NCBI GenBank assembly: GCA_022820625.1 | Contig: JAJEFE010000077.1 | Span: 20,768 to 84,767 of the forward strand | DNA from: Gammaproteobacteria bacterium | Lineage (GTDB): Bacteria > Pseudomonadota > Gammaproteobacteria > Steroidobacterales > Rariloculaceae | Direction of reading: 5' to 3' | Length of the DNA stretch: 64,000 bases | Shown here: positions 171 through 32,750 of the stretch, piece after piece | Position numbering within the stretch: position 1 is the first letter of the stretch | Layout: the number at the start of each line of letters is the position of its first letter | Program-made: the position numbers and the translations under genes | Notes under the pieces: generated by a model | The model's database searches: none | What the model was told of the DNA's origin: nothing | What the model saw: only the letters and a program-made list of their open reading frames with translations

Positions 171-1091
171 ATGAATAGGTTGGTTCGAATCTCGCTCGTG
201 TCCGCGGTTGCACTTGTGCTTGTATCCGAGATCGCGCGGACTGAACCCTATGTCACTCTGGGACTCACGTTCGCAAGCGACGAAATAGGCGCCAGCACAA
301 GCGGTATCAACCATCCCACGCGCTGTGACCGCTTCTTGTATTCCGATCCGTCCATGGCGCCCGGTGGAGCGGAATGCCGGGATACAACGGTACGGGCATT
401 CCTGAGCGATACGTTTGATCTGGGCGCGGCGATCGCGGGCTCTGCGAGTTTCGGCTACGCCTGGGACAGGCTGAGGATTGAAGCGGAGTTTCTGAGCCGT
501 ACGCATGAGGGCGGCAGTGCGTTCCTGATCAGCGCTGTGGACAACCCCGCCTTGCAGGGCAAGGCCACGGAGTGGAGCCCGCACGATCCGCCCCACCATC
601 GGGTGTCAGATTTCAACTCAAGCCAGCTCTTCCTGAACGTGCTGTACGACTTCGGTATCGACTCCGCCTGGTCGCCCTATGTTGGAGTTGGCGCCGGTCT
701 TGCACGCGTTCGGTCGCACTACTTCGCGTCCTTTCTGCGCCGCACCCTGGCGGATGGCTATGTGGAGGCCGTGGGCGGCGATCCCGAACAGCCGGAAGAT
801 TGGCAGTTGGCGGCTGCGGGGACCTCCAGCGTGCTGGATACCCGGGTGAGCGACGATGTATTCGGCTATCAAGTTGTCGCTGGAGTGGAACGCGATCTGA
901 CCGACGGCACTTCACTGTTCCTGACCCTGCGTTGGAGTGACATCGACGACGTCAGCGACGAGGAGGTCTGGGATACGCTCCGCAGCCATGAACCCGTCCA
1001 TGCGGATGGCGTGATGCCCTTCATTGGCTACCAGGATCTCCGAGACATTGGCGGAGCATCCCTGACAGTGGGACTCAGATACGAATTCTAG
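171..1091 (+). CDS. outer-membrane beta-barrel protein (OmpA-like barrel / porin-like)
   Basis: Track ORF 75..1091. The internal ATG at 171 gives a signal peptide, MNRLVRISLVSAVALVLVSEIA. The sequence is Gly/aromatic-rich with alternating strands and ends ...GLRYEF, the aromatic C-terminus typical of OMPs. Confidence 0.6.
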   Translation: MNRLVRISLVSAVALVLVSEIARTEPYVTLGLTFASDEIGASTSGINHPTRCDRFLYSDPSMAPGGAECRDTTVRAFLSDTFDLGAAIAGSASFGYAWDRLRIEAEFLSRTHEGGSAFLISAVDNPALQGKATEWSPHDPPHHRVSDFNSSQLFLNVLYDFGIDSAWSPYVGVGAGLARVRSHYFASFLRRTLADGYVEAVGGDPEQPEDWQLAAAGTSSVLDTRVSDDVFGYQVVAGVERDLTDGTSLFLTLRWSDIDDVSDEEVWDTLRSHEPVHADGVMPFIGYQDLRDIGGASLTVGLRYEF

Positions 1092-3343
1092 CCCGCGGAC
1101 CAGGGACGAATTCGTCTGTCCCAGCCCTCGGCGTCTACGATCTCGCCAATGACGGCGGTATCCGGGTAGCCTCTCGCCTTCAATTCGCTCACACACCCCT
1201 GGACAAAGTCCCGCGGAACGCTCGCAAGCAGCCCGCCGGCGGTCTGGGGGTCGAATAACAGGGCAAACTCGCCGCGCTCGCGTAGCCTTGCGTCGGCTTC
1301 GACCTGCTCCGCGAAACGCTCGTTCTTTGGCTGAAGTGTTGAGAGAATGCCTGTCTCGACCGTGTCGATAGCCCCGGGGAGAACGGGGAGCGCGTCCAGA
1401 TCGATCAGAGCGCCGAGCGGTGCGTCGCCCAGCATCTCCAGCAGATGCCCGGCCAGTCCGAAACCTGTGATGTCGGTGCAGGCATGGGCGCCGTGCCTTC
1501 CGAGCACTTCGCCGGCGGTTCTGCACGAAAGGAGCATGGATTCGATGGCCGCCTGAAGCCACCGTCCCCGGGCCTCGCCCCGCATGTCGGCCGCGAGCAG
1601 CGTGCCGGTGCCCACCGGCTTGGTCAGCACCAGGAGGTCACCGTTCTGCAACGCCGACTTGCGAAGCGCCCGACCCGGTTCGATCAGGCCGGTGACCGTG
1701 AATCCCAGGTTCAGCTCCGCGCCTTCACCGGTGTGTCCTCCCACCAGCGAGACACCCTCCTGATCGAAGACGTACAAGGCTCCGAGCAGCATCTGCCTGA
1801 GCTCATCCACCAGTTTTTCCTCGGGCCACACCGGCAGCGTCGCCATGGTCATGGCCGCCTGGGGTTCCGCGCCCATGGCGTAAATATCGCCCAGGCAGTG
1901 ATTGGCGGTGATGCGCCCGAACAGCCAGGGGTCATCGATCATCGGCCGGAACCCATCCACCGAGAGCACCGAGAGCCTGTTCGCCGGAACGGAGATCATT
2001 GCCGCGTCGTCCGGCGCCTCCAGGCCGACGATCACGTCGTCTCTCGGAACAGTGTCGATATCCGCCAACGCGGCGGCCAGCACGTCGGCACTGACCTTCG
2101 CTCCGCAGCCTCCGCAGCGCATGTCGCCGTCAGCGGCATCTTCGATGGTGGGATCTTGAAGCGGTGCTGGAATCTGGGGGCTATTGTCCGTGGGCTCCAT
2201 TTCGGGGAGTACCTGGTATTTCTCCATGAAGCGAGAATCGATCCAGTCCTTCCATCGCCACACCCAGCGGCCCTCGGCGGACCAGGGACCACGCGAAGCC
2301 ACTGCGTAGCAATCCCCTGTGCTGACCAACTTCAGGAACCGCCGCTGGGGCCGATACTTGGTCAGGGGTCTGTTCAAAAGGTGTCGGCGCAGGTTTTCCG
2401 TCAGCGGCCGCCCCTGGCGAACCGCGAAAACGCCGGCCTTCGGGCGGGGGTTATTTGACATGGCCACCACGTCGCCGGCGCCGAACACATTGGCGTGGGA
2501 TTGCGACTGGAGGTGGTCGTTGACCAGCAAGAATCCCTGTTCGTCGACTTCGATTCCCGATTCTGCCAGCCATGGAGGGGCGCCGGCCTGGGTGACCCAG
2601 AGAATCTCGTGGAACCGAAATTCGCGCCCGGCAGCATCGACCAACATGTTCGGCGTGACCCGCGTCACCCGTGTGTCGACGTGCACCTCGATGCCCCGCT
2701 CGGCAAGAATCCTCCTGAACCGCCTCGCGACGTTTCGTGGATGCTCCAGAAGGATTCCACCGTCGGCGGTCAGGAGTTCCAGCGAGAGTCCCTCGGGCGG
2801 ATTCGACTGTGCTGTCAGCGAGTGATGAACCGCGAGACACAGTTCGACCCCGCCGGTGCCGCCGCCAACCACACCGATTCGGGCGCCGGCGCCATACTCG
2901 CCCAAGCGCTCGCGGAGGGTTTCCCAATGCCCCAGAAAGCGATTGATGGGCTTGACCGGTACCGCATGATCGCCGGCACCGTCGACCTCATGAATAGACG
3001 GCGTCGATCCGGTATTGATGGAAAGAACATCGTAGCTTACCGGCGGCCGGGTCATCAGAGACACCGTCCGCGCTTCCGGATCGATCCCGGTGACCTCATC
3101 GTGGAAAAAGCGCGCACCGGCAAACCGGGCCAGCGGTACCAGGTCGATGTGAGCCTGATCAAAGGAATAGTGACCGGCGATCAGTCCCGGCAGCATCCCG
3201 GAATAGGCTGTCTCGATGTCCCGGCTGATCAGCGTGAGCCGGACCCCTGGGATCGGCCGCATCCCGAAGGACTTCAGAACGGCAATGTGGCTGTGGCCGC
3301 CTCCCAGCAGAACCAGATCCCTGATGACTGGTACCGACTGCAT
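1088..3343 (-). CDS. selD: bifunctional FAD-dependent pyridine nucleotide-disulfide oxidoreductase / selenide, water dikinase (SelD fusion)
   Basis: 751-aa ORF. The N-terminal half has Rossmann motifs (LVLLGGGHSH, VVGGGTGGVE, FGAGD). The C-terminal half starts with the SelD signature MRCGGCGAKVS (Cys-type active site) and has a PurM-like body (GGHTGEG, TDITGFGLAGH). Confidence 0.9.
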   Translation of the reverse strand: MQSVPVIRDLVLLGGGHSHIAVLKSFGMRPIPGVRLTLISRDIETAYSGMLPGLIAGHYSFDQAHIDLVPLARFAGARFFHDEVTGIDPEARTVSLMTRPPVSYDVLSINTGSTPSIHEVDGAGDHAVPVKPINRFLGHWETLRERLGEYGAGARIGVVGGGTGGVELCLAVHHSLTAQSNPPEGLSLELLTADGGILLEHPRNVARRFRRILAERGIEVHVDTRVTRVTPNMLVDAAGREFRFHEILWVTQAGAPPWLAESGIEVDEQGFLLVNDHLQSQSHANVFGAGDVVAMSNNPRPKAGVFAVRQGRPLTENLRRHLLNRPLTKYRPQRRFLKLVSTGDCYAVASRGPWSAEGRWVWRWKDWIDSRFMEKYQVLPEMEPTDNSPQIPAPLQDPTIEDAADGDMRCGGCGAKVSADVLAAALADIDTVPRDDVIVGLEAPDDAAMISVPANRLSVLSVDGFRPMIDDPWLFGRITANHCLGDIYAMGAEPQAAMTMATLPVWPEEKLVDELRQMLLGALYVFDQEGVSLVGGHTGEGAELNLGFTVTGLIEPGRALRKSALQNGDLLVLTKPVGTGTLLAADMRGEARGRWLQAAIESMLLSCRTAGEVLGRHGAHACTDITGFGLAGHLLEMLGDAPLGALIDLDALPVLPGAIDTVETGILSTLQPKNERFAEQVEADARLRERGEFALLFDPQTAGGLLASVPRDFVQGCVSELKARGYPDTAVIGEIVDAEGWDRRIRPWSAG

Positions 3344-3462
3344 TGGTCAGGGCGCCTCATCCATAGTGAGGCGAATATACCGCTCTGGCCCGGATATCTC
3401 ACTGATATGCGGTGCCCTGAGTGAAACCTGGCCGATTTTGTTGAACGGCCGAAGCTGGTTGA

Positions 3463-4533
3463 TCAGCCCTCGTGGCGGATTTCCTCCGGCGCGCGTTGCC
3501 GGTCATTCGGCAGTACGTCGAAGTGCATCGTGAACTGGAAATCGTCCGGCGGATAGCAGATCTCGTCGTCGCACGTCTGGTAGCTGAGCACCACGTCCAC
3601 GGCGACCGACTCTTCCCGGTACGCCGGCGACAGCGACACTTCACGCGTCAGCCGAGCGGTTCCGTAATAGACCGGGACGCTCTCGTCGATGGGCTCGAGA
3701 TAGAGGATTTCGTGCTCGGGAAGCTCCAGGGCGCCTTGCAGAACGTGTTCGGTCTCGACGATGTTGAGGTCCGCGGCGACGTAGTCCGATCCCGGTGCGT
3801 AGAGGTGCATGCGTTCGGGCAGATCGATGTCCGCCACCACCAGGACCGTGTTGCCCGGTTGAATCTCATCCTGCGACGCGTAGGCGGTGAAGTCGAACTG
3901 CGGCATCTGCACTTCGATGCGGCGGCCGCCGCCGGCTCCGAACGTCTTCATGAGAACGGTCTGCGCGGTGGGCCGGATGCGGTGGCTGTCCTCGAACCAC
4001 TTGTCCGTCACGATACCGTCGGCATCGACGATGTAGGTGCCGGGAAACGCCATGCCATCGGTACGGCTGCCCGGCTCCGGGTTGGGGTTACGGATGCCGT
4101 AGGCTTCGATGATCTCGGAGTCCGGGTCGGCCAGCGTCGAGTATCGGAATCCGCCCATTCGATCTGCGAAACTCTTGAGGATTTCGACCGTGTCGTAGCT
4201 GATCGCAACCACCCCCACGCCGGCTGCCGTGTAATCGTCCAGAGAATCTTCCAACTGCACGAGTTGGGTCTTGCAGTAGGGTCACCAATCCGCCGATCGG
4301 TGGAACACCACCATGGCGCCGTTCGGGCCCATCACGTCGCCCAGACCGACCAGGTTGCCGTTCTGATCGTAGGCGGAGAAATCCGGAATGCGCTCGCCGA
4401 CTTCCGGGCCGCTGACCATGCCCCGACTGCCTGCCGGAATGTCGGTCAGGAAGTTCTGTGCAAATGCCGGAGCGATTGCCGTGGCTAAAATCATGACCAT
4501 GAGTGCGCCACGAGTGGTGAGGGAGTTGAACAT
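3463..4533 (-). CDS. candidate selenoprotein: periplasmic Prx-like/AhpC-TSA redoxin (W-U-P-Y-C) fused to a DsbD-alpha-like domain; in-frame TGA at 4282..4284
   Basis: Track ORFs 4282..4533 and 3463..4260 are in the same frame (4533-4260=273). They are separated only by TGA plus 7 sense codons. Read-through gives ...VVFHRSADW-[TGA]-PYCKTQLVQLED, the WCxxC redoxin motif with the first Cys replaced by TGA. There is an N-terminal signal peptide (MVMILATAIAPAFAQ). The C-terminal half carries SYQTCDDEICYPP (DsbD N-terminal-domain type). Confidence 0.75.
4251..4268 (-). promoter_or_regulatory. candidate bacterial SECIS hairpin downstream of TGA 4282..4284
   Basis: On the minus strand the sequence is UGA + 13 nt + CCAACU-CGUGC-AGUUGG: a 6-bp stem with a 5-nt loop containing GU. 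Confidence 0.4.
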
Positions 4534-4672: not shown

Positions 4673-7084
4673 TCAGACCGTATTCACCTGCAACGGCCCA
4701 TGGGACTGCGGCTGTCCGGCGGCGGCGTTGACCACCATGTCCGGGCTGACCGGCGCACGGTTGAAGTCGTAGCCGCCCAGGGCATCGGAGATCGCGCACA
4801 GCACCGCGGCGGACGCGCAGCCCTGGATTGGCTCGCCGACGCCCTTGGCGCCCACGGGGTTCTGCGGATCGGCAATATCCACGCCCGCCCACTGCATGGT
4901 GGAGGGCACATCCAGGTAGGACATGGGTTTGACCTGGTGGAAGCCGACGTTGGCCGGCAGGCCGTTCTGCGAATCGTAGACGTGGCGCTCGGTGCAGGCC
5001 ATGCCCAGGCCCATGACCGCGCCGCCCTTGACCTGGTTGGACAGGCCCTGGGGATGCAGCACCGTGCCGCAGTCGGCGACGCTCGCGTAGTCCAGGACCT
5101 CAAACCTGCCGGTCTCAAGATCGAGTTCGATCTCGATGAAGCCGCTGGCGATGGCCGGCACCACTCCTTCGTGGCGCAGGTTGTCCTTGGCGACCCCGAC
5201 CAGCCCCGTGCCCGCGAGCCCCGCCACAGCCATCCGCGTGACATCGTGGATGTCTTCCGGGGCCTCTTCGCCGGAGTAGCGCCCACCGAGTTCGATGGCG
5301 CGCTGCGCGGCGGCGGCGTAGGTCATCGACCTGGAAGGATCATCCGTGGCGAACACGGTTTCATCGCCGATATCGTAGTCCTCCGGCGCGCCGCCCAGGT
5401 CCATGGCGGCGATTTCCCTGAGTTTCTGCAGGGCATCCATGGCCGCCACGTAGTTGGTGCGCGTACAGGTGAAGGAGGTGTTGCTGCCGGTCTGGGTCGG
5501 CGCCCAGGGCAGATGCCGGCGACTGTCGCCCCGTTCGATGACGCAGTTGTCCCAGTCATACTTGAGTATCTCCGCCGCGACCCGGGAGGTGGCGGTGTGG
5601 GAGTACGTGCCGAGGTTGCCGCAGCCGGTGTGGATGTGCAGTACGCCGTCGGGCGTGATCCGCACCAGGCCGTCGTAGCTGTTGCGGCCGGCGGAGTGGT
5701 AGCACTGGCCGATCCCGATGCCGATGACCTTCGACCCGTTGCGCTGGCCGCTGCGAGCCTGTTTCTCCTCCCAGTTGAACAGTTCGGCGCCCATGACCAG
5801 CGTTTCGTCCTGGTAGGCGCTGGTGACGGGGCCCTGGCGGCCACCGATCCTGGCGTCATTTCCGGCCGAATTGATGCGCCGTATCGACAACTGGTCGATA
5901 CCCAGTTCTCGCGCGGCCTTGTCGAGGATCGGCTCGACGGCTTCGGCGATCTGGTTCTGCCCCGGGCCACGCTGGGGTCCCCGCGGCGGCGTGTTGGTCT
6001 GCACCGGAATGCCCCGGTAGCGCATCGCGAGCGGTTGGTAGAGGATGGAAACCGAGTCCGCGGCCGAATCGTTGTCGTTCCAGCCGGTGTGGGGGCCGTT
6101 CTCGTGCACGATGGACAGGTCCACGGCGAGAATGCGGCCATCCTCCCGCAGGCCCATACGAAGCCGGCCCTGGAAGCCGGCCCGAGCGATGCCGAGTCCG
6201 TATTCTTCGGCGCGGGTGATCCGCAGCATGACCGGACGGCCGGTCTGTTGGCTCAGCAGGGGGGGCACGGCCATGATCGGATACGGGCCGCCCTTGGAGC
6301 CGAATCCGCCGCCGCAGGTCTCCGCGACGTACACGAGGTCTTCCTGCTCCACGCCCAGTAACTGGCAGAGCCCGGGCACCATGGCCGTCTGGCTCTGCGA
6401 CGAGCCGTACAGGACGCACTTGCCGTTCTCCCAATACGCCATGCAGCTTCGCGGTTCCATGCAGTGGTGGGAGAGGCTGGCGGTGACGAAGCTTTCATCG
6501 ATCACCACGGCGGCCTCCTCGAAACCTCCGTCCACGTCCCCGTAGGCCCATTCGGTGATCGGCTGGCCCATGGGAAGCTGGCCCTCTTCGACGGCCGCGA
6601 AATCCCCGGCGGTCCACTTGACCGTCTGCACCGGGATGCTCCGGCCCGCCACGTTGCCGTCACTGCGGGCATTGGGCCCGCCGGGGTACAGGCTCTCCAG
6701 CGGATCGAAGGTGAAAGGCAGGGGTTCCAGGTCCAGTTCGATCAGGTCGATGGCGTCCTGGGCCGTGGTCTCGTCCACGGCGGCCACCGCGAGAATGGGT
6801 TCGCCCACGTAGCAGGGCTCGTTCGTGAGAATAGGCGTTGCCGGGGAACGGGGTGCTTGCGCGGCCGGGATGTCGTCGGCGGTCAGTACGGCATGTACGC
6901 CTTCCAGGGCCAGTGCGGCGGAGGCGTCGATGCTCCGCACCCGCGCGTGGGGCATGGGACTGGTCAGCAGCTTGCAGAACAGCATCCCCTCGGCGCGAAA
7001 ATCTTCCGCGTACTTGGCCTGCCCGGTGACCTTGCCGCGCACATCCGGCGGCACGAAATCCCTGCCAATCAGCGTGTAAGCCAT
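4673..7084 (-). CDS. xanthine dehydrogenase/aldehyde oxidase family molybdopterin-binding large subunit
   Basis: 803-aa ORF. N-terminus MAYTLIGRDFVPPDVRGKVTGQAKYAEDF... (a/b-hammerhead start). Its length and composition are typical of CoxL/XdhB-like subunits. No adjacent 2Fe-2S or FAD subunit genes. Confidence 0.85.
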   Translation of the reverse strand: MAYTLIGRDFVPPDVRGKVTGQAKYAEDFRAEGMLFCKLLTSPMPHARVRSIDASAALALEGVHAVLTADDIPAAQAPRSPATPILTNEPCYVGEPILAVAAVDETTAQDAIDLIELDLEPLPFTFDPLESLYPGGPNARSDGNVAGRSIPVQTVKWTAGDFAAVEEGQLPMGQPITEWAYGDVDGGFEEAAVVIDESFVTASLSHHCMEPRSCMAYWENGKCVLYGSSQSQTAMVPGLCQLLGVEQEDLVYVAETCGGGFGSKGGPYPIMAVPPLLSQQTGRPVMLRITRAEEYGLGIARAGFQGRLRMGLREDGRILAVDLSIVHENGPHTGWNDNDSAADSVSILYQPLAMRYRGIPVQTNTPPRGPQRGPGQNQIAEAVEPILDKAARELGIDQLSIRRINSAGNDARIGGRQGPVTSAYQDETLVMGAELFNWEEKQARSGQRNGSKVIGIGIGQCYHSAGRNSYDGLVRITPDGVLHIHTGCGNLGTYSHTATSRVAAEILKYDWDNCVIERGDSRRHLPWAPTQTGSNTSFTCTRTNYVAAMDALQKLREIAAMDLGGAPEDYDIGDETVFATDDPSRSMTYAAAAQRAIELGGRYSGEEAPEDIHDVTRMAVAGLAGTGLVGVAKDNLRHEGVVPAIASGFIEIELDLETGRFEVLDYASVADCGTVLHPQGLSNQVKGGAVMGLGMACTERHVYDSQNGLPANVGFHQVKPMSYLDVPSTMQWAGVDIADPQNPVGAKGVGEPIQGCASAAVLCAISDALGGYDFNRAPVSPDMVVNAAAGQPQSHGPLQVNTV

Positions 7085-7286
7085 GTCATTTTCCCCTTAT
7101 GAATCCGGCACAGGCGCAATGGGCCGCTTGCATGCCCCTTCAACCCCGAGATTAACACGAAAAAAGACGCACACTCATGGTGTTCCCGACCCGGTGGCGG
7201 TCCGTCCCACCCTGGTCCGGCCCTGGGTATACAATTCCGGTTGGCAGGAGTCACGATGCACGTTGATCGGTAACGCGGGAGTAGCC

Positions 7287-8495
7287 ATGTCACGGAAGTT
7301 GGAAGAGCGAGGTCATGTAGTGGAAGAACGCCGGCAAGGCGCAGCAACGCGTCGGCGGGACGTTCTCACGGGTGGCGTGGCACTTGGCGGGCTGGCCGCC
7401 ACCGCCGGCATGCCGTTCTGGTCGAAACTCGCCCTGGCCCAGGGGGAGGAAATCGTCCCGTTCACCGATGTCCCTGATACGTTCGCGGCGCCCCCCGTCG
7501 TACCCGGCGGAATCCACTTCCAGGACACGCGCTTCATCGACTCCTTCTACACGCCGGTGGGCGACTTCTACATCGTCCAGCACTACAACCAACCGGAAAT
7601 CGATGCGGAGAGTTATCGGTTACGGATCACGGGCCTTGTGGACCGCCCCATGGAACTCACCCTGGCGGATTTGCAGTCCCGGCCGAAGGTCGAAATCGAT
7701 GCCGGATTCGAGTGCGGGGGCAATCGTGCCGCGATCTTTCACGGCCTGATCGGCAATGCACGCTGGGGCGGCATCAGCCTGCGCGAACTGGTGCTTGAGG
7801 CGGGCATTCAGGACTCGGGTCTTGAGGTGGTCTTCTACGGCGCCGATGCGGGTACCGAAAGCATTCGCGAGCAGAGAGTCGAGCAGAACTTCGGCCGCAG
7901 CATGCACCGCGACGATGCGCTTCTCCCGGAGATGACGCTGGCCTGGGAAATGAACGGCGAGCCGCTGAACCTCTACCACGGAGCGCCGGTGCGGCTGATC
8001 GCTCCAGGCTGGTACGGCATATCGAACGTGAAATGGCTCACCCAGATCCACGTACAGGACCGGCGGTACATGGGCCGCTTCATGGCGCGGGACTACGTGA
8101 CACTGGCCCGCCGCGACATCGGCGGCGTGGAACGCTGGGAGGAACGCTCCGTGACCCGGATGCGGCTAAAGTCGTCCATCGTGCGCGTCACTCGCAATGC
8201 AGACGGCCACGAAATCATGGGTTTCGTGCTCAACGACGGCACACCGCTGAGTTCCGTGGAGATCCGCATTGACGATGGCGCCTGGCAGCACGCGGCCATC
8301 GACCCGGAATCCACCCAATACTCCTGGAAGCTGTTCCGCTACGCCTGGCAGGACGCCCAACCGGGCGAACATACGATCGTCTCGCGGGTCACAGACGCGA
8401 ACGGCCAGGTCCAGGCCACCGCCGACCAAATGCCCGAAAAGCCCACCCGCTGGGAGAATTACGCGCAGTTTCCCCGAACGGTGATGATCGGCTGA
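7287..8495 (+). CDS. sulfite-oxidase-family molybdopterin oxidoreductase (SorA-like), Tat-exported
   Basis: Track ORF 7083..8495. ATG at 7287 is preceded by GGGAG. Twin-arginine leader ATRRRDVLTGGVALGGLAATAG. Mo-ligand motif FECGGNRAA. C-terminal Ig-like dimerisation-type region. Confidence 0.85.
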   Translation: MSRKLEERGHVVEERRQGAATRRRDVLTGGVALGGLAATAGMPFWSKLALAQGEEIVPFTDVPDTFAAPPVVPGGIHFQDTRFIDSFYTPVGDFYIVQHYNQPEIDAESYRLRITGLVDRPMELTLADLQSRPKVEIDAGFECGGNRAAIFHGLIGNARWGGISLRELVLEAGIQDSGLEVVFYGADAGTESIREQRVEQNFGRSMHRDDALLPEMTLAWEMNGEPLNLYHGAPVRLIAPGWYGISNVKWLTQIHVQDRRYMGRFMARDYVTLARRDIGGVERWEERSVTRMRLKSSIVRVTRNADGHEIMGFVLNDGTPLSSVEIRIDDGAWQHAAIDPESTQYSWKLFRYAWQDAQPGEHTIVSRVTDANGQVQATADQMPEKPTRWENYAQFPRTVMIG

Positions 8496-9890: not shown

Positions 9891-11198
9891 ATGACGGTTC
9901 AGGTAGCGCAGGACCTGCCGACGCTCTCGGAGTTGGCTGATGAGCGATTCGCGCGGGATCCGGGGTTTGCCTACCGGGCCGCCCATGCGCAGCCGGGACC
10001 CGGCCTGTTCCAAATGCCCACCGGCGACGGGCTGATCGCCACGGCCCATCGGACGCTCGCGGACCTGATGCACCATCCCGCCCTGGGCGCGCAGCACCGC
10101 CGGAAACGCCGCTCGGGCGCCGGAGCCAAGGGCGCCCTGGCCCGGATGGACAGCTACAGCCCCTTCTTCATGAACGAGCCCGCGCACACGCCCATCGCGA
10201 TCGCGACCTACCGGCCCATGAGCCCCGCGCGAAACCATCCGCTGATCGAGACGATCACACACGCCGCCGAAAAGGCCCTGGACGACATGCTAGACCGCGG
10301 CGGAGTGGTCGACCTGCGGCGGGACTATGTCCAGGTCATCGTCCGCAACTTCTGGGTCCGGTTCCTGGGACTGCCGGCGGAGGCGGCGCCGCTCCTGGAG
10401 AAATGTTCCGCCGACATATTGCCCATGTTGAAGTTCGAGAATACGCCCGGGGAGGTGGAGACCGCGAACCGCGCCGCGCAGACCATGCGGGATTACGTGG
10501 AGGTGCACCATGGGACGGTCGGGGACCCGCCGGGCGGAGATTCGCCGGGCGGAGAGTCGTCAGGCGGAGATTCAACCGGCGGAGAGTCGGCGGGCGGAGA
10601 TTCAACGGGCGAGACCTTTCTCGATCACTTCGAGTCCGTGCTTGCCGACGGCGACTGGAAGGACTTGCCAAGGAACGCCGCGACGACCGCAGCGGCGATC
10701 ACCTTCGACGGCATCGACTCCGCGGCAGGAGGCGCCGCCAACGTCATCTACACGTGCCTGAGCCACCCCGACCAATGGGCGCTGCTGGTGGAGAACCCGC
10801 GACTGGTCCATGACGCGTGGCGCGAGGCGATACGCCTTGAGCCGCCGTTTTTCGGCCTTCACCGCGGGGCATATAAGGACATCGATTACGATGGAGTTCG
10901 GATCGACGCCGGCACCAATCTTCTGATGGCGTGGGGAGCGGCCAACCGCGACCCCCGGGTCTTCGAGAATCCGCACGTTTTCGATATCCGGCGGCAGAAG
11001 CGGCGCACGCTGGGGTTCGGCGGCGGCCCGCGAATCTGCAAGGGTCGCCACCTGGCCATGCTGGAGGGCGAGATTGCGCTGCGCGTGCTGCTTGAGCGGC
11101 TCGCCTCCATCGAACTGCTGGTGGACGAGCCCGACTGGGGAGGTCCGGGCATGGTTCGCGCCATCCGGTCCATTCCGGCGCGCCTGAGCCCGAAGTGA
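9891..11198 (+). CDS. cytochrome P450
   Basis: Track ORF 9822..11198; ATG at 9891. Heme-thiolate loop FGGGPRICKGRHLA. EXXR (EAIRLEPP). Contains an internal (GG[DE]Sx) repeat insert. Confidence 0.9.
   Translation: MTVQVAQDLPTLSELADERFARDPGFAYRAAHAQPGPGLFQMPTGDGLIATAHRTLADLMHHPALGAQHRRKRRSGAGAKGALARMDSYSPFFMNEPAHTPIAIATYRPMSPARNHPLIETITHAAEKALDDMLDRGGVVDLRRDYVQVIVRNFWVRFLGLPAEAAPLLEKCSADILPMLKFENTPGEVETANRAAQTMRDYVEVHHGTVGDPPGGDSPGGESSGGDSTGGESAGGDSTGETFLDHFESVLADGDWKDLPRNAATTAAAITFDGIDSAAGGAANVIYTCLSHPDQWALLVENPRLVHDAWREAIRLEPPFFGLHRGAYKDIDYDGVRIDAGTNLLMAWGAANRDPRVFENPHVFDIRRQKRRTLGFGGGPRICKGRHLAMLEGEIALRVLLERLASIELLVDEPDWGGPGMVRAIRSIPARLSPK
10530..10613 (+). repeat. in-frame 15-bp tandem repeat (about 5.6 copies) inside the P450 gene
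   Basis: ccgggcggagattcg / ccgggcggagagtcg / tcaggcggagattca / accggcggagagtcg / gcgggcggagattca / acgggcgag, encoding PGGDSPGGESSGGDSTGGESAGGDSTGE. Confidence 0.9.
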
Positions 11199-12817
11199 CA
11201 ATCGGGGACGAATCGATGCACTTCCTTGAAGAGCCCACCGTGATCCGGAATCCCAATCCTCGCGTGCCGCTGGCCGCGGTGGTCTGTTTCCGCCCCAGCG
11301 AGCCCGGCCGAACGCGAATTGACATCCGCGATCCGGACCGCCAGTGGAGCGTGGAGTTCGGCCGCGACCGGTCGCCGGCCGAGGGGCTGCCCATTCTCGG
11401 CATGCGCCCCGACCGAGACCACGAACTTCGCGTGACGCTGATCGCCGAATCCGGCGCCGAAGTGACGGCGCCCGCACCGCTGCACTACCGTACGCCCCCC
11501 TTACCGGGTGGCTACGACTTTCCCCATGGCATCCGCATCAACCGGGACGACCGCAGCCGCCGCGAGCCGGGCGTCCTGCTGCTTTCCGTGCATCGCATAC
11601 CCAGGGGGCGGTACAACGAGTGGTCGCACGAGACAGTGGACTTCGGTTTCGGGTGGGGGATCATCGTCGCCCTGGACGCCGACAACGAAGTTTGCTGGTA
11701 CTACGAGACCGACAGCTTTCTGGAAGGCATCGACCGGCTCCGGAACGGCAATCTGATCTTCCACCGCTGGGATTTCCGCACCTTCGAGATCGACATGCTC
11801 GGCAATACCGCCAACCAGTGGTATGCGGCTCGCCGGCCCCAGGGCCCGGTCTCCGGGGCCATTGCCGTGGACACCGCCGGATTGCATCACCAGCCGAAAG
11901 AGATGCCCAACGGCAATTTCCTGATCTTCACCGCGTCATCCCGGGAAATCGACGACTACTACACGGACCAGTACAACCTGGAGGCGCCCCGGCGCAGGGC
12001 CATCGTGGTCGGCGACGGCGTGGCCGAGATGGACCGCAGCTCCGGCGAGCTGCTCTGGCGCTGGTCCGCGTTCGACCGCCTCGATCCGATGCGGATCGGC
12101 TATGGAGGTACGGACGACTACTGGGCCATGCGCGGCTTTGAAGGAGCGCTGGACTGGACCCACGGCAACGGCGCCGGCTATGACGCCCGGGACGACTCGG
12201 TAGTGGTTTCGCTACGGCACCAGGATGCCATCGTCAAGGTCGACCGAGCCAGCGGCAACATCAAGTGGATACTGGGCGAGCCGACCGGTTGGGGCGAACT
12301 CGGCGACAGGGTGCTGAAGCCCGTCAACCTGGCACGCTGGCCCTATCACGGACACAACCCTCGCCTCACCCCGGAAGGCACCATCGTGTTCTTCGACAAC
12401 GGAACCTGGGGCGCCCGCCCGCCGGAGCCGCCGGTCCCGCCCGAGAAGAATTTCAGCCGCGGCGTTGAGTACCGCGTCGACGAAGACGCCATGACCGTCG
12501 AGGAGGTCTGGGCGTCGGATACGCGCCATTCCCCAACATCCCGGCATTCCCCCGACATGGGTGACGCTCACAGGCTGCCCCAGACCGGCAACATGCTCGT
12601 GATCTGGGCGCACTGCGCGGCACCCGACACCGGACAGGTCTACAGCAACAGCGACACGAGCGGCACATTCTTCAACGAGTTCCACATGCCCTCCCTGCTG
12701 CGGGAATACGCCCGAAACGGCTCATCGGAGGTCGTATTCGAACTCGAACTGTACGATCCGGACGAAACCATCAATTGGGGCATCTACGGTGGGTTGATGA
12801 TTCCGACTCTCTATTAG
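11195..12817 (+). CDS. aryl-sulfate sulfotransferase (ASST)-like beta-propeller protein, no signal peptide
   Basis: The GTG at 11195 overlaps the P450 stop (GTGA); an alternative ATG lies at 11216. Motifs LHHQPKEMPNGN, DWTHGNG and HGHNPR are shared with the paralogs at 46455 and 59125. The N-terminus starts directly at the mature-domain position of those paralogs. Confidence 0.8.
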   Translation: MTIGDESMHFLEEPTVIRNPNPRVPLAAVVCFRPSEPGRTRIDIRDPDRQWSVEFGRDRSPAEGLPILGMRPDRDHELRVTLIAESGAEVTAPAPLHYRTPPLPGGYDFPHGIRINRDDRSRREPGVLLLSVHRIPRGRYNEWSHETVDFGFGWGIIVALDADNEVCWYYETDSFLEGIDRLRNGNLIFHRWDFRTFEIDMLGNTANQWYAARRPQGPVSGAIAVDTAGLHHQPKEMPNGNFLIFTASSREIDDYYTDQYNLEAPRRRAIVVGDGVAEMDRSSGELLWRWSAFDRLDPMRIGYGGTDDYWAMRGFEGALDWTHGNGAGYDARDDSVVVSLRHQDAIVKVDRASGNIKWILGEPTGWGELGDRVLKPVNLARWPYHGHNPRLTPEGTIVFFDNGTWGARPPEPPVPPEKNFSRGVEYRVDEDAMTVEEVWASDTRHSPTSRHSPDMGDAHRLPQTGNMLVIWAHCAAPDTGQVYSNSDTSGTFFNEFHMPSLLREYARNGSSEVVFELELYDPDETINWGIYGGLMIPTLY

Positions 12818-12829: not shown

Positions 12830-14716
12830 ATGAACATCGCCAATAGTCAGATAAAGCGCCATTCCTTCGCAGCTGTATTGGTTGCAGTGCTCGGCGTGAT
12901 TTGCACGTTCCCGCTGACAGTCCGTGCGCAGGGCAACAATATTGCAGGTCTGGAAGCAGGGACAGCCTCAACGGAACCACCCGACTACGATGCGTACGAG
13001 TGGTCCCTTCCCCGCGTTCCTGTGCTGGAGGCGCTGGACCGGGACGGGGACGGGCAGTTGGATGCCCTTGAAATAGCGGCCGCTCAGGAGTCACTCATGC
13101 CTCTTGACGCCAACGGTGACCAGTTGCTGGACAGGCGTGAACTTGGCGGCCCGGGCCCGATCCCGGGCTGGCTTCGCCTGCAAACGCCCATCAAGGTCAT
13201 CGACAAGGACGGTGACGATCAAATTGACTTTGAGGAACTGGAACAAGCCACCGCTGCGCTTCGCCGCGCCGATCTGGACGGCGACTGGGTACTGAGCAAT
13301 GCGGAACTGTACGATCGACGTGCCGTGCCCCCATCTCCGGAGGGCCTGGCGAACGTCAGGCAATTGGTCGCGATGCTGGGTCGATCGGATGTAGTCTATC
13401 CGATACTGCCCGGCGAGGACCCCCGCCAGTATGAGGCCTACATGCTCTACACGGAGTCAGGATCCGCCGGCGATACCACCATTAACGCCGGAACCAAGCT
13501 GCTGGACCCGCAGGGCAACCTGGTTCATGAATGGCCATCCGAACATGGGCCGGAAGGCGTCCATTCTCATCTCCTCCCGGATGGCAATCTCCTTCGGCAA
13601 GCGGGCATTGGGGACTTCTTCGATATGCGATCCTTTCCGGTCGCGGCCCACGGAGTCCTGGAAATCGTGGCGCCGAACGGTGAGGTTCTTTGGGAGTTCA
13701 GTCACTGTATCGAGAACAACATGTGCCTGCATCATGACTTCGCTCCCATGCCAAACGGCAACGTTCTCGTAACGGAGTACAACGCGGTACCCAGAGTGGA
13801 ACTCGAATTCCACGGTCGTACGCCGCGACGGAATGAAAGGGACGTACGCTGGTTCGAACGAATTCTGGAATTGAAACCGAACCTGGAGGATGGTTCGACC
13901 GAGATCGTGTGGATGTGGTCAGATCTTGATCATATGGTCCAGGACCAATTCCCGAACCGGCCAAACTATGGCGACATACGAGAGAACCACGATCGATTCG
14001 ACATCAACTTTCCCGGTAATGCACAGAGGCACTTCCACGCGAATGGCATCGATTACGAGCCTGAGCGGGACTTGATCGTATTCAGCAGTGTCAATCACAA
14101 CGAAATCTATATCATCGACCACAGCACCACGACAGCGGAGGCAAGAACAGGCCAGGGCGGGCGTTGCGGAAAGGGCGGGAGGATACTCTTCCGATTCGGC
14201 AACCGGGCCGTGTATGGCTACGGCGACGCTGAAAGTCAGATTCTTGGCGCTCAGCATGATCCGCACTTCATAAAGGCCGACAATCTCCCCGGGCCCGGCG
14301 ACCTGACCATTCATAACAATCGGGCTGGAACCATTCCCGGGGCTGAAGCCATTGGCGCATTTGGTCTCGGTATGTCGTATTCGTCCATCGTCGAAATTGC
14401 ATTGCCGTACGACGATAACGGCTGCTTCGAACTCGCGGAGAATGGCGACCCGTACCAGACGGAAATCGTCTGGGAGTACATCGAGGAACCGCTCGGCGCC
14501 TGGCACGGCCCATTTGCCGGAGCGGCCACCCGCGTTCCAAACGGTAATACCGTCGTCATGAATTCACAGACCAAGAGAGTGTTCGAGGTCACCCCGCAAG
14601 GTGAGCGAGTTCTGGACTTTCAATTGCCCGAAACCGGTCGACCGCAAAAGCTGCAAAAGCTCAGTCTCGATTATCCGGGACTGGTGTCGTTGCTGGAAAG
14701 CCTTGAGGCGGAGTGA
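12830..14716 (+). CDS. secreted EF-hand (x4) + arylsulfotransferase-like beta-propeller fusion protein
   Basis: GGAGG RBS lies 7 nt upstream. Signal peptide AAVLVAVLGVICTFPLTVRAQ. EF-hand loops DRDGDGQLDALE, DANGDQLLDRRE, DKDGDDQIDFEE and DLDGDWVLSNAE. The C-terminal part shares HHDF, HANGIDY, PNGNT.V and FEVTP.G with 21594..23189. Confidence 0.75.
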   Translation: MNIANSQIKRHSFAAVLVAVLGVICTFPLTVRAQGNNIAGLEAGTASTEPPDYDAYEWSLPRVPVLEALDRDGDGQLDALEIAAAQESLMPLDANGDQLLDRRELGGPGPIPGWLRLQTPIKVIDKDGDDQIDFEELEQATAALRRADLDGDWVLSNAELYDRRAVPPSPEGLANVRQLVAMLGRSDVVYPILPGEDPRQYEAYMLYTESGSAGDTTINAGTKLLDPQGNLVHEWPSEHGPEGVHSHLLPDGNLLRQAGIGDFFDMRSFPVAAHGVLEIVAPNGEVLWEFSHCIENNMCLHHDFAPMPNGNVLVTEYNAVPRVELEFHGRTPRRNERDVRWFERILELKPNLEDGSTEIVWMWSDLDHMVQDQFPNRPNYGDIRENHDRFDINFPGNAQRHFHANGIDYEPERDLIVFSSVNHNEIYIIDHSTTTAEARTGQGGRCGKGGRILFRFGNRAVYGYGDAESQILGAQHDPHFIKADNLPGPGDLTIHNNRAGTIPGAEAIGAFGLGMSYSSIVEIALPYDDNGCFELAENGDPYQTEIVWEYIEEPLGAWHGPFAGAATRVPNGNTVVMNSQTKRVFEVTPQGERVLDFQLPETGRPQKLQKLSLDYPGLVSLLESLEAE

Positions 14717-21593: not shown

Positions 21594-23189
21594 ATGAGCG
21601 TCGTTGCCCGCCAGACCCCGTACCCGGTCGGCGCGTTGCCGGTTGCCATGACGGTCGTCACGTTGGCGGGTGTCGTGAAGTTTCACAGCCCCATGGCTTA
21701 TGAGGCGTTCCAGGGTCCGACCGAACTCATCTACCACGACCCCGAGCGAGCGTACCAGGGCTATACGATGTTCACGCCCTCGCGGGGCCGGAACACGTAT
21801 CTCATCGACATGAACGGGGAGGTGGTACACACCTGGCCCATCCCCGCGAGTTGGCGCGATCCGGAGATTCGGGAGAATGCCCGGCTTCTGGACGACGGGA
21901 TGCTGGCCCGCAGCGAGACTGTCGCAGACGGCTCGACACCCGGGACCTATCAGCTCGTCGACTGGGACGGAGCGGTCGTTTGGGAGTACGTGTCCGGCCG
22001 CGAGGATCTTTCCGGTCATCACGACTTCCGGTTCATCCGCAATCCGAAGCTGGGTCAACGCACGCTCATTTATTCCGCCACCCGGGAGACGCCCCACGAG
22101 AAAATACTCGCGCTGGGCGCCGATCCCGCGTTTCGGGAGAGCTACGACTCGCGTCCCGACGGCCTGGTCGAGGTCGACATGGACGGCAATGTCGTCTGGG
22201 AGTGGAACATCAGCGACCACGTCGTGCAGGATTTCGATCCGAACCTGCCCGGCCATGGTGTCGTCAGCGAACACCCCGGCAAGCTGGACATCAACTTCGG
22301 GCCGGGCGTCAGCGGCAACTGGATTCATATGAACGGATGGGACTTCAACGAGGTTCTGGACCACGTGGCGATCAACAATTCGCGCATGAGCGAATTCTAC
22401 GTCGTCGATCACGGCGCGACGTTCGTTCCCGGCGATCCGCAGCGCAGCCGCGAACTGGCGGCAAGCGATGCCGGTGACTTCATCTACAGGTGGGGCAACC
22501 CTTGCGTATCCGATACCGGCGAATGCCCGTCGATGACCGCCGAGGGGTTTACCACCAGCAACGGCCACCAGCAGGTTTTCTTCAGCCACGATATCCAGTG
22601 GATCGACGACGGGGACTTCGGTGCGCTGGACGGGCCTGTTCCCGGTGAGGGCCACTTCCTGATCTTCAACAACGGCGCGCGGCAGCCGGGCCCCACGTTT
22701 TCGTCGGTGATCGAGATCGACCCCTATGACGGACCGATGGAAAACGGCATCTACGTCCCCGCTGCCGTCGCCGGTTACGAGCCCATGCCGGTGGGCGGCG
22801 GCATGAGCAGGCAAACCCAGAATGTTTCCAGGCAGGTGGTCTGGCGCTTCCACGGAGTCTCGCCCAACTCGTTCTACAGCCCGTACATCTCGGGAGCACA
22901 GCGGCTGCCCAACGGCAATACGCTGGTCTGTTCAGGCGCCCACGGTCACATCTTCGAGGTCACCCCGGAAGGCAACGTCGTCTGGGAGTACATCAATCCC
23001 GTGGGCGACAGGCTGGAGAACGACCGGGGCATCTATCGCACGATGACCGACAGAGCAGGCGAGGAATTCAACTCGATTTTCAAGTGTCAGCGCTATGCTC
23101 CCGATTATCCTGGCCTCAATGGCAAGGATCTGACGCCCAGGGGGAAGATCACGGAGTATTTTTCCGAAGCCGTTGAATTGAAGCCGTAG
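21594..23189 (+). CDS. arylsulfotransferase-like beta-propeller protein (second subtype)
   Basis: 531 aa. Shares HHDF, IHMNGWDF, RLPNGNTLV and FEVTPEGNVVWEY with the C-terminal part of 12830..14716. Confidence 0.65.
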   Translation: MSVVARQTPYPVGALPVAMTVVTLAGVVKFHSPMAYEAFQGPTELIYHDPERAYQGYTMFTPSRGRNTYLIDMNGEVVHTWPIPASWRDPEIRENARLLDDGMLARSETVADGSTPGTYQLVDWDGAVVWEYVSGREDLSGHHDFRFIRNPKLGQRTLIYSATRETPHEKILALGADPAFRESYDSRPDGLVEVDMDGNVVWEWNISDHVVQDFDPNLPGHGVVSEHPGKLDINFGPGVSGNWIHMNGWDFNEVLDHVAINNSRMSEFYVVDHGATFVPGDPQRSRELAASDAGDFIYRWGNPCVSDTGECPSMTAEGFTTSNGHQQVFFSHDIQWIDDGDFGALDGPVPGEGHFLIFNNGARQPGPTFSSVIEIDPYDGPMENGIYVPAAVAGYEPMPVGGGMSRQTQNVSRQVVWRFHGVSPNSFYSPYISGAQRLPNGNTLVCSGAHGHIFEVTPEGNVVWEYINPVGDRLENDRGIYRTMTDRAGEEFNSIFKCQRYAPDYPGLNGKDLTPRGKITEYFSEAVELKP

Positions 23190-23264: not shown

Positions 23265-23306
23265 CAGGATTAGCCTCATGAATAGCAGGATTAGCCTAAT
23301 GAATAG
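23265..23306 (+). repeat. 21-bp tandem duplication spanning the start codon of the next gene
   Basis: caggattagcctCatgaatag / caggattagcctAatgaatag. Each copy carries an in-frame ATG (23278 and 23299). Confidence 0.9.
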
Positions 23307-24333
23307 AAAGTGGATCTTCGCTGCCATACCCCCCTTGCTGATGCTGACCGCCCACGCGCCGTCAGCGTCCGCGCACCATTCCATGTCCGAATACGATCGA
23401 AGCGTCGTCACCGAGTTCGAGGGCGAAGTGGTCCAGCTCTCCTGGACGAACCCGCACGTGCTCCTGTGGGTGGAAACGCCGGACGAGAGCGGAGAGCCCG
23501 TGGTCTGGGAAATGGAAGGCAGCGCCGTCAGCGCACAGCGCCGCCGCGGAGTGATGGGCGGAGAGGTGAGTGTCGGCGACCATGTGCGTGTCGCTGGCTG
23601 GCCGTCGGTAGTGCGGCCCGCGCACATGCAGGTCACCAACATATTGCTCCCCGACGGCGTGGAACTCCTGGTGGGCGGCGCCAGGGAGCCTCGCTGGGCG
23701 GACTCGGCTGTCGGTGGCGAAAGAAATCTGATCGACCCCGCGAAAGCCGCGGCCGCGACCGGGGAGGGCATCTTCCGCGTATGGAGCCAGGGCTCGGGCG
23801 CCTGGTATTTCACCGGCCGTTCCGACTACGAGCTGACCGAATCCGCGGCGGCGGCCAAGGCGCAGTGGGACGACATCGAGGACAATCCCATCATGCAGTG
23901 CGTCCCGCCCGGGATGCCCGGACTCATGGGCAACCCTTATCCGATGGAATTCATCCAGCGGGACGGCTACATCGAACTGCGCTTCGAGGAGTTCGATGCA
24001 CGGCGCATCATCCACATGGAAGATGCGGGCGATCCGGCCGAAATGCCGTTCTCACACATGGGCTATTCCGTGGGCCACTGGGACGGGGACACGCTGGTGG
24101 TCAGAACGACGCGGATCAACTGGGACTACTTCGACCGGCAGGGCGCGCCGATGACGACAGACGTGGTCGTCGACGAGCGGTTCACCGCCGTGGAGAACGG
24201 CGATCGGCTCAACTACCTGATGACGGTCACCGATCCGGATATCCTGGTGCGGCCCTTCGTCTGGGACGCCTATTTCATCTGGCGCCGCGGCGAAGAAGTC
24301 AACCTCTACGATTGCACGCTGGAATACCAGTAG
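23278..24333 (+). CDS. DUF6152-like secreted protein with a long C-terminal extension
   Basis: Signal peptide, then ASAHHSMSEYDRSVVTEFEGEVVQLSWTNPHVLLWV, paralleling 63528..63920 (GHHGGAAYDGSETVEVVGKVSRFEFVNPHVLIYA). About 230 extra C-terminal residues. The start is 23278 or 23299. Confidence 0.6.
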   Translation: MNSRISLMNRKWIFAAIPPLLMLTAHAPSASAHHSMSEYDRSVVTEFEGEVVQLSWTNPHVLLWVETPDESGEPVVWEMEGSAVSAQRRRGVMGGEVSVGDHVRVAGWPSVVRPAHMQVTNILLPDGVELLVGGAREPRWADSAVGGERNLIDPAKAAAATGEGIFRVWSQGSGAWYFTGRSDYELTESAAAAKAQWDDIEDNPIMQCVPPGMPGLMGNPYPMEFIQRDGYIELRFEEFDARRIIHMEDAGDPAEMPFSHMGYSVGHWDGDTLVVRTTRINWDYFDRQGAPMTTDVVVDERFTAVENGDRLNYLMTVTDPDILVRPFVWDAYFIWRRGEEVNLYDCTLEYQ

Positions 24334-32085: not shown

Positions 32086-32748
32086 GTGGCCACAGCGAAA
32101 GAAATAGCCTTCGAACGGATACGGAACTCGATCTTTTCGGGCAAATTCCAGCCCGGATACCAACTCAAGGAAGAGGAGTTGGCGAATTCACTGAACGTCA
32201 GCCGCACGCCGGTGCGTGAAGCGCTGCGGATGCTGGCGGACCAGGGCTTGATCGAAATCCGCTCCAACCGGCGTTCCTACGTGGCCGACGTCACCGAGGC
32301 GCAGTTCGAGGAACTCATGGATATTCTCTCGTTCCTCGAGAGCTACAGTGCAGCCCGGGCCGCGCGGCGAATCTCGAAGGAAGCGCTGGAGGAACTCAGG
32401 CAACTGAACGCCGAGATCGAAGAGGCCGTCGATGACGATCCGCGATTCCTGCAGCTTAACTCCCGGTTTCATCGGGCCATACACCGCGCGGCGGGCAGTC
32501 ACAAGCTCTACGAACTGATCGACCGGATCATCGACTTCCACCACAATCTCTACTTCAAGTTCGGCCAGATACCGGCCAGGCACAACCCGCTCAGCGTGGT
32601 CGAGCACCGGAACATCATCGAGGCGCTGGAGGACGGGGACGAGGAATACGCGGCGCTGATGATGAAGGCACACAACGAATCGGTCAGGCGTGCATTTCGG
32701 CAATATTGGCGCGAACGCGGCGAACTTTCGGACGCGAAGAGCACTTGA
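32086..32748 (+). CDS. GntR-family transcriptional regulator, FadR subfamily (FCD domain)
   Basis: GTG at 32086 after GAAAGGAA. Winged HTH ...YQLKEEELANSLNVSRTPVREALRMLADQGLIEI. All-helical C-terminal domain with the H/H pattern (RFHRAIH, EHRNIIEAL). Confidence 0.9.
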   Translation: MATAKEIAFERIRNSIFSGKFQPGYQLKEEELANSLNVSRTPVREALRMLADQGLIEIRSNRRSYVADVTEAQFEELMDILSFLESYSAARAARRISKEALEELRQLNAEIEEAVDDDPRFLQLNSRFHRAIHRAAGSHKLYELIDRIIDFHHNLYFKFGQIPARHNPLSVVEHRNIIEALEDGDEEYAALMMKAHNESVRRAFRQYWRERGELSDAKST

Positions 32749-32750
32749 CG

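Follow-up and report, generated by a model that had tools for sequence, protein, structure and literature searches.

The 64-kb window analysed here (positions 20,768 to 84,767 of the gammaproteobacterial contig JAJEFE010000077.1, a stretch to which all unmarked positions refer) carries on its minus strand a gene for a two-domain redoxin whose reading frame is interrupted by one TGA. The frame runs from ATG 4533..4531, with GGAAGTG 6-12 nt upstream, to the stop TGA 3465..3463, and its only internal stop is TGA 4284..4282 at codon 84. An earlier reading of the locus, made from the letters alone (the sequence-only reading), had proposed that the two open reading frames (ORFs) listed for this region, 4282..4533 and 3463..4260, share one frame and are split by this TGA and seven sense codons. 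The sequence agrees: the seven codons are PYCKTQL (4281..4261), and the GTG that follows them is the start chosen by the ORF lister for 3463..4260. When read through, the peptide contains ...VVFHRSADW-U-PYCKTQLVQLEDSLDDY... (motif HRSADW-U-PYCKTQL) and, near its C-terminus, YQTCDDEICYPP, so that the WCxxC-type redoxin motif and the C-terminal motif are both present as quoted there. The comparisons described below indicate that 4533..3463 is very probably a genuine selenoprotein gene, in which UGA-84 is decoded as selenocysteine (Sec, U). The features of the gene are as follows.

3463..4533, minus strand: complete read-through gene, 356 codons plus stop, Sec at codon 84 as proposed; orthologues match residues 1-356 across the TGA
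4459..4533, minus strand: predicted signal peptide of the Sec secretion type, MFNSLTTRGALMVMILATAIAPAFA, cleavage before QNF; read from the sequence (basic n-region, hydrophobic core, A-x-A site)
4282..4284, minus strand: in-frame TGA, proposed Sec codon U84; TGA in 79 loci and TGC or TGT in 65, Cys aligned in full-length homologues
4273..4284, minus strand: redox motif U84-P-Y-C87, a thioredoxin-type UxxC preceded by W83; from the homologue alignment and an alignment to PrxQ (2cx3)
4251..4267, minus strand: candidate bacterial selenocysteine insertion sequence (SECIS) hairpin CCAACU-CGUGC-AGUUGG, stem 4267..4262 / 4256..4251, loop CGUGC 4261..4257; from RNAalifold and pair counts
4006..4401, minus strand: AhpC/TSA domain (peroxiredoxin-like, thioredoxin fold), residues 45-176; Pfam PF00578, E=1.6e-28, 99.6 bits
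3535..3858, minus strand: DsbD-alpha-like (DsbD_N) beta-sandwich domain, residues 226-333; Pfam PF11412, 34.9 bits against a cut-off of 25
3556..3573, minus strand: conserved Cys pair C321-x4-C326 within YQTCDDEICYPP; from alignments of Sec and Cys forms

Codon 84 and the downstream hairpin

Two sets of homologues were compared. The orthologue set came from 15 species-level gammaproteobacterial genomes, several 'Candidatus Rariloculaceae' chromosomes included, and the wider set comprised 145 loci carrying the motif, with metagenome contigs added. All 15 genome loci had TGA at the homologous codon, and residues 1-356 aligned at 70-92% identity. Across the 145 loci, the equivalent of codon 84 was TGA in 79, TGC in 48, TGT in 17 and TAA in one. 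The Sec state is widespread and no quirk of a single lineage, since TGA also occurs in metagenome clades that share only 31-39% identity with the window protein. The protein search yielded about 90 clusters of short proteins (263-267 aa, 50-84% identical) whose start lies directly after the TGA, and also full-length proteins of 336-380 aa (35-43% identical) that share both Pfam domains. In the latter a Cys is aligned to the TGA (RSADW-C-PYCKTQL), and the homologous residue at this redox site was Cys, never Trp or Gly.

Among the observations that the sequence-only reading had named as speaking against it are homologues with the halves as independent genes and relatives with TAA, TAG or a frameshift at this position. 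The full-length Cys homologues share the two-domain architecture, and a single TAA was found against 79 TGA. It had also proposed to check whether Cys homologues align Cys to the TGA and have the same two domains; they do both (RSADW-C-PYCK). The TAA occurs in the metagenome homologue L238 (codon at ~2131), where the flanks are otherwise intact (FRSADW*PFCKVQLVELQQ); this may be a pseudogene or a sequencing error.

When the window was compared with the 15 genomes and the differences were summed, synonymous changes exceeded non-synonymous ones in both 54-codon flanks of the TGA (285 vs 98 upstream, 256 vs 121 downstream). Judged by these codon counts, both flanks are under purifying selection in the same frame. 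TGA terminates 18 of 37 ORFs in the window (chosen by length and by G+C content at third codon positions) and is the commonest stop, so it is no general sense codon in this organism. A crude scan of the window for further genes with in-frame TGA gave only out-of-frame noise and missed the true case too, and is therefore uninformative. That standard pipelines mis-split the locus, as had been claimed, is evident from the ~90 clusters of fragments in public entries. The database entries returned for Sec forms, those at NCBI included, were truncated, and some of them were named 'redoxin domain-containing protein' or 'hypothetical protein'.

The hairpin downstream of the UGA is numbered here from the U of UGA and occupies positions 18-34. 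It begins 14 nt past the TGA, and its apical loop lies ~22 nt from the UGA. The sequence-only reading had the hairpin and its sequence right, whereas its extent moves from 4251..4268 to 4267..4251 and its distance from 13 to 14 nt; the hairpin it had singled out is the one that is backed by covariation across homologues. In the gamma clade, positions 18-23 pair with 29-34 around the loop CGUGC. In other clades C24-G28 pairs as well, which gives a 7-bp stem with the loop GUG. The same stem was obtained as the RNAalifold consensus of 61 distinct Sec-form sequences. By pair counting, 92% of cells were paired, compared with 16-50% in controls with the 3' arm slid by 1-3 columns, and none of 500 shuffles attained the observed pairing or covariation score. 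Compensatory changes were found at pair 21-31 (GC 49, AU 10, GU 2, no mismatch) and at pair 18-34 (CG 33, GC 17, UG 5). The gamma clade and distant clades both include sequences with the AU state of pair 21-31 (CAA...UUG), for which the window employs the minority codons CAA and UUG (usage 21% and 10%, respectively).

The key control was provided by the Cys forms, since the peptide that they encode is similar. The five core pairs were kept in 67 of 68 distinct Sec forms but in only 21 of 65 Cys forms; likewise, the Leu and Val codons vary freely in Cys forms, whereas CUC-GUG is near-invariant in Sec forms. Two Cys forms, L031 (TGC codon at 2037) and L249 (TGC at 2977), carry the complete hairpin (CAGCUCGUGGAGCUG and CAACUCGUCGAGUUG, respectively); their sequences suggest that they switched from Sec to Cys recently and retain a 'fossil' SECIS. 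The loop of the hairpin has G-U at positions 25-26, near the G23/U24 found in the fdhF element of E. coli. According to the published description, a bacterial SECIS lies soon after the UGA and has a small apical loop with a G in it (PMC1088965), and the hairpin has both traits. For comparison of SECIS shape, a Sec-containing FdhA upstream of selA was sought in the relatives, and none was found.

A different hairpin, ACUGCA/UGCAGU with flanking pairs (4254-4280, minus strand), is the minimum-free-energy structure of the single sequence and starts 4 nt after the UGA. It is seemingly backed by one compensatory change in locus L011, but among 68 Sec sequences it can be formed by the window alone, and it was rejected as the SECIS. 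It might compete with the SECIS stem in this organism.

The two domains of the read-through protein

In addition to PF00578, the N-terminal domain matched Redoxin (PF08534, 64.3 bits), and its sequence matches in the PDB were BCP/PrxQ, AhpE and ResA. The AlphaFold2 (AF2) model of the Cys homologue P0092 (mean local confidence, pLDDT, 91.7; predicted template modelling score, pTM, 0.86) resembles the BcpB, Bcp4 and ResA folds, and Foldseek with this two-domain model returned thioredoxin-fold matches only. The model suggests a fixed inter-domain arrangement. When the domain was aligned to A. pernix PrxQ (2cx3), Pro42 corresponded to Ser80, Ser46 to U84, the peroxidatic Cys49 to Cys87 and the catalytic Arg122 to Pro164. 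Pro164 is invariant and stands at the thioredoxin-type cis-Pro position. Three of the four catalytic residues of the peroxiredoxin signature (Pro-x3-Thr/Ser-x2-Cys plus Arg), namely Pro, Thr and Arg, are missing, and no NCBIfam model reached its cut-off with the read-through protein (the best was BCP, 50 bits vs 140). By this alignment the N-terminal domain is evidently no true peroxiredoxin (Prx), because U aligns with the Thr/Ser of Prx and not with the peroxidatic Cys, and U takes the thioredoxin-type N-terminal Cys position. The proposal of the sequence-only reading that the TGA replaces the first Cys of an AhpC/TSA WCxxC motif thus stands in the thioredoxin sense, but this is not the peroxidatic position of Prx.

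For the C-terminal part a DsbD-alpha type had been claimed, and three lines of evidence now agree with it: PF11412 above its cut-off, the predicted fold and a conserved Cys pair. The AF2 model of residues 205-356 of the window protein is an all-beta sandwich (pLDDT 94.6), for which the best PDB matches in Foldseek were nDsbD of N. meningitidis and E. coli (6dnv, 6dps, 3pfu) and ScsB-alpha of P. mirabilis (6c29). E-values went down to 3.5e-6, and template modelling (TM) scores were 0.61-0.68 when normalised to the nDsbD targets; for ScsB-alpha 6c29 the TM score was 0.39 to the longer target chain and 0.61 to the query. All aligned Sec and Cys forms share C321, C326, Q319 and P329 without exception. 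In E. coli nDsbD the Cys pair is C103/C109, with the spacing C-x5-C.

The ...ALAQNF junction at the end of the signal peptide is kept in orthologues, and from the sequence we infer that the read-through protein is exported. It consists of the signal peptide and two soluble domains only; the transmembrane beta domain of a DsbD/ScsB transporter is absent.

Neighbouring genes and Sec-decoding machinery

On either side of the redoxin gene, the minus strand carries the following genes.

1088..3343, minus strand: pyridine-nucleotide-disulfide oxidoreductase (Pyr_redox_2) fused to SelD; NCBIfam TIGR03169 484 bits and TIGR00476 selD 276 bits, both above cut-off
4673..7084, minus strand: upstream neighbour, molybdopterin-binding subunit of the xanthine-dehydrogenase (XDH) family; from Pfam, with no NCBIfam equivalog at cut-off

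The SelD fusion that had been placed about 120 nt downstream on the same strand lies across a gap of 119 nt, with SelD recognised by both Pfam and NCBIfam. The SelD part is a Cys form with the active site C-G-G-C-G-A-K (motif MRCGGCGAK). In the 119-nt gap there is a sigma-70-like promoter match, GTGAGA-17-TATATT (3374-3402, minus strand), and no terminator-like site was found there. Conservation of the order molybdenum (Mo) enzyme / Sec-redoxin / SelD fusion is confined to the gammaproteobacterial lineage, and even there extra genes or gaps of 0.8-1.9 kb part the redoxin gene from the SelD fusion in several genomes. Outside this lineage, Sec and Cys forms alike have unrelated neighbours and no SelD. 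Locus L282 (ENA KELL22-1 scaffold_949) has an identical 265-aa C-terminal product and still has the SelD fusion downstream; its upstream gene is of a restriction/methylase type (N6_Mtase, Eco57I), not a Mo-enzyme, so what lies upstream differs even between strains that are nearly identical. Neither YqeB/YqeC nor SelU was found near the gene in the window or in three other neighbourhoods.

The XDH-family gene has no adjacent genes for flavin adenine dinucleotide (FAD) or 2Fe-2S subunits. It is divergent to a gene of the sulfite-oxidase family (Oxidored_molyb, 7083-8495, plus strand), with starts that overlap by 2 nt, and for the latter no NCBIfam equivalog was found at cut-off. The XDH-like gene was also considered as a selenium-dependent molybdenum hydroxylase and rejected (TIGR03311, 180 bits vs a cut-off of 830).

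The window itself supplies SelD, in the fusion gene. Other components of the Sec-decoding machinery were found in relatives. In the orthologue locus L011, the 3' part of selB, matching SelB-wing_3, Beta-barrel_SelB and GTP_EFTU_D2, is followed by tRNA-Sec at ~7 kb from the redoxin gene. In L082, L083 and L084, selA (463 aa), selB (633-636 aa) and tRNA-Sec stand in a row, except that the L082 contig ends before the tRNA; L082 and L083 come from the same metagenome-assembled genomes (MAGs) as the orthologue loci L013 and L012, respectively, and L084 from a more distant gammaproteobacterial MAG. To cover more genomes, a 34-nt pattern taken from the D and anticodon arms of tRNA-Sec was scanned over 185,579 species genomes. 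It occurred in 33 contigs, of which all but two were labelled Gammaproteobacteria, Proteobacteria or this lineage, the two being labelled Rhodospirillaceae. Of the 15 assemblies with a Sec-form locus, 14 are represented among these contigs, including OY761822.1, whose protein is the closest to that of the window (92% identical). ARAGORN recognised tRNA-Sec in 32 of the 33 contigs, the remaining one being cut at its end. In every case where the fetched stretch extended far enough, tblastn located SelA and/or SelB next to the tRNA gene. The tRNA-Sec is 93 nt long, with a mean column identity of 96% among three aligned. The compact selA-selB-tRNA-Sec operon recurs in the lineage (L082, L083, L084, L165-L196), and the 34-nt pattern serves as a marker of this lineage. 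Two other searches were less useful: a regular expression for the SelB G-motif had no match in the window and the early loci, and an alignment-based SelB search of the genome contigs gave for the most part weak matches to the G domain (residues 4 to ~340, at 29-34% identity) from unrelated phyla, presumably other translational GTPases.

Elsewhere in the window there are five arylsulfotransferase (ASST) paralogues (11195-12817, 12830-14716, 21594-23189, 46455-48167 and 59095-60879). The same 64 kb holds a sulfatase (32706-34385), two TonB-dependent receptors (35939-38911, 43922-46243) and transporters of the major facilitator superfamily, and the ASST/sulfatase region looks like an island for utilisation of sulfated compounds. 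DUF6152 proteins are recurrent: they were found in the window at 23278-24333 and 63501-63920, in L080 (8626-9654) directly between the Mo-enzyme and Sec-redoxin genes, and in L011 (8113-8502) near selB and tRNA-Sec. At 40240-43767 (minus strand) there is a gene for a 1175-aa fusion of B12-binding, MeaB GTPase and methylmalonyl-CoA-mutase parts (IcmF-type), adjoining an acyl-CoA dehydrogenase gene.

Proposed mechanism, rival explanations and known systems

We propose that SelB and tRNA-Sec decode UGA-84 as selenocysteine, directed by the hairpin 14 nt downstream with its G-U-containing loop. The mature protein would then combine an AhpC/TSA-scaffold domain (W-U84-P-Y-C87) with a DsbD-alpha-type domain (C321/C326). 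The alpha domain of DsbD exchanges disulfides with thioredoxin-fold domains and proteins; in the same way, U84/C87 and C321/C326 may exchange electrons inside one polypeptide. A membrane transporter of the DsbD/ScsB/CcdA type, encoded elsewhere, would keep the protein reduced, and Sec would supply a more reactive nucleophile. The protein would in that case be a periplasmic selenol/thiol:disulfide reductase and not a true peroxidase. To this periplasmic relay we give roughly even chances; its direction of electron flow, its donor and its substrate are inferred.

If the TGA were a true stop, the locus would consist of a gene for an 83-residue exported peptide and a separate (or untranslated) 265-residue remnant from GTG 4260, that is, a pseudogene or two genes. 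Gene callers and public databases do list the short proteins that begin after the TGA, TGA is the commonest stop in the window and the relative L238 has TAA at the position. However, TGA is kept in 79 widely divergent loci, both of its flanks are under purifying selection in a single frame, the Cys homologues are single genes, and the downstream piece would have neither a signal peptide nor the N-terminal half of the thioredoxin fold, in which the active site lies; a true stop is therefore extremely improbable. We see just as little chance that the TGA is decoded as something other than Sec, by read-through with a near-cognate Trp or Cys tRNA or by a reassigned code. Such decoding fits poorly with the 18 of 37 window ORFs that end in TGA, with a homologous residue that is Cys and never Trp or Gly, with the full Sec machinery in relatives and with a position-specific hairpin that is kept in 67 of 68 TGA forms vs 21 of 65 Cys forms.

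Two further explanations accept Sec and differ in what the protein does. In one of them, U84/C87 would reduce peroxides, making the protein a true peroxiredoxin of the periplasm, and the DsbD-alpha domain would do no more than recycle it. In favour of this, selenols are quick to react with peroxides, BCP/PrxQ and AhpE are among the top matches by sequence and fold, and the Cys homologues are named 'peroxiredoxin' in the sources. A ScsB-fed periplasmic Prx pathway exists (PMC3322552), but the analogous protein PrxL showed no detectable peroxidase activity (PMC3322552). Three of the four catalytic residues are absent (Pro replaced by Ser80, Thr by U84 and Arg by Pro164), and the NCBIfam Prx models score far below their cut-offs (at best 50 bits vs 140). 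We regard a peroxidase as unlikely. Alternatively, the protein could handle selenium, reducing or carrying periplasmic selenium species and feeding the adjacent Ndh-SelD, so that the gene order would be functional. The conserved order of Mo-enzyme, Sec-redoxin and SelD fusion in the gammaproteobacterial lineage is in line with such a role, but other lineages have unrelated neighbours without SelD, extra genes or gaps of 0.8-1.9 kb separate both genes in several genomes of the lineage itself, a promoter-like site lies inside the 119-nt gap, and SelD is cytoplasmic whereas the redoxin has a signal peptide. A selenium-handling role is therefore considered highly improbable.

Several observations weigh against the proposed decoding and relay. 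Alone, the hairpin of the window is weak (-6.5 kcal/mol, vs -11.5 kcal/mol for an overlapping alternative fold), and the 60-nt window segment folds no better than shuffles (z = -0.24); the significance of the hairpin comes from the comparison across homologues only, the window's own folding giving none. A search of the whole window matched no Rfam family at gathering score, SECIS families included, and near the TGA there was only a 10.9-bit chance match. As the hairpin overlaps the conserved peptide QLV[QE]L, its conservation is partly at the protein level. No DsbD, CcdA or ScsB gene was found near any member examined (the window and three other neighbourhoods). Finally, selA, selB and tRNA-Sec were not found within the 64-kb window, which is without any tRNA genes; they were seen in relatives only, one of which (the MAG of L007) gave no tRNA-Sec match. 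The sequence-only reading had held that a genome without Sec-decoding genes would speak against it. On this point, the machinery in 14 of 15 related assemblies and selD in the window support Sec decoding, while selA, selB and selC are absent from the window.

That a Prx-like UxxC domain is covalently joined to one of the DsbD-alpha type leads to the testable hypothesis that periplasmic Prx-like1 proteins swap electrons directly with alpha domains. As a bolder and improbable extension, the fusion could act as a 'Rosetta stone': Prx-like1-type periplasmic redoxins such as PrxL would be obligate partners of DsbD-alpha-type domains, and the Sec form would be a self-contained reductase module of high reactivity, tied to selenium supply in the Rariloculaceae-related lineage (e.g. 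by reducing periplasmic selenium species upstream of Ndh-SelD). The subfamily is widespread, with members in metagenomes of marine, sediment, soil and freshwater origin, but selenoproteome surveys leave it out of their counts because its entries are split or truncated and no NCBIfam model matches at cut-off. With its many switches between Sec and Cys, its good alignment and its hairpin-bearing Cys forms, the family is a natural data set, suited for studying replacement of Cys by Sec and the minimal SelB-binding hairpin in non-enteric bacteria.

Sec-containing Prx-like UxxC redoxins, the Ndh-SelD fusion with CxxC and mis-annotation of selenoproteins in general are already known. UxxC Prx-like selenoproteins have been known since 2004-2005. 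A 'Prx-like protein' was described in the Sargasso Sea study (PMC1088965); 'Prx-like 1' of the Global Ocean Sampling (GOS) data (pfam00578, UxxC) comprised 225 sequences (PMC2398784), and a 'Redoxin family protein' selenoprotein (PF08534, UxxC) is tabulated in a 2026 review (PMC13188914). The sequence-only reading knew of no description of the Sec form fused to a DsbD-alpha-like domain. PF11412/DsbD_N was not found in the selenoprotein literature searched, and the fusion was found neither in the searchable literature nor in NCBIfam, which is no proof that it is undescribed. Since short reads would leave the C-terminal domain unseen, the fusion may be hidden among the entries for 'Prx-like 1' or the 'Redoxin family protein'.

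Prx-like selenoproteins have a thioredoxin-like UxxC in place of the TxxU of Sec-Prx (PMC1088965). The window protein is like them in its AhpC/TSA-family thioredoxin fold, in Sec as the first residue of UxxC, in the widespread Cys homologues and in a SECIS candidate soon after the UGA, a likeness by family and motif description, not by alignment to the references WP_010940744.1 or HEU0032618.1. It is unlike them in its C-terminal DsbD_N domain with a conserved Cys pair of its own. Fusion partners reported for the GOS Prx-like proteins are PP2C, Secretin_N-like, Unknown_2 and Unknown_3 with CxxC; DsbD_N is not among them (PMC2398784). The neighbouring gene matches the described Ndh-SelD fusion (TIGR03169 plus selD), including the CxxC at the SelD active site (PMC2398784).

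PrxL of Caulobacter crescentus (PRX_like1, cd02969) is exported, is kept reduced by ScsB and has no detectable peroxidase activity (PMC3322552). By description, it shares with the window protein export, two redox Cys positions and the loss of conserved Prx catalytic residues, and its donor domain, ScsB alpha, is related to DsbD-alpha. PrxL, however, is a single-domain Cys protein whose alpha partner resides within a membrane transporter, whereas in the window protein an alpha-like domain is fused and the nucleophile would be Sec. Compared with DsbD and ScsB and their partnerships (nDsbD with CcmG, DsbC or cDsbD), the C-terminal domain of the window protein has the nDsbD/ScsB-alpha fold and the YQxC...C.PP Cys pair. 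Unlike DsbD and ScsB, the protein is soluble, lacks the transmembrane beta domain, places the thioredoxin fold before the alpha domain and has its Cys pair as C-x4-C.

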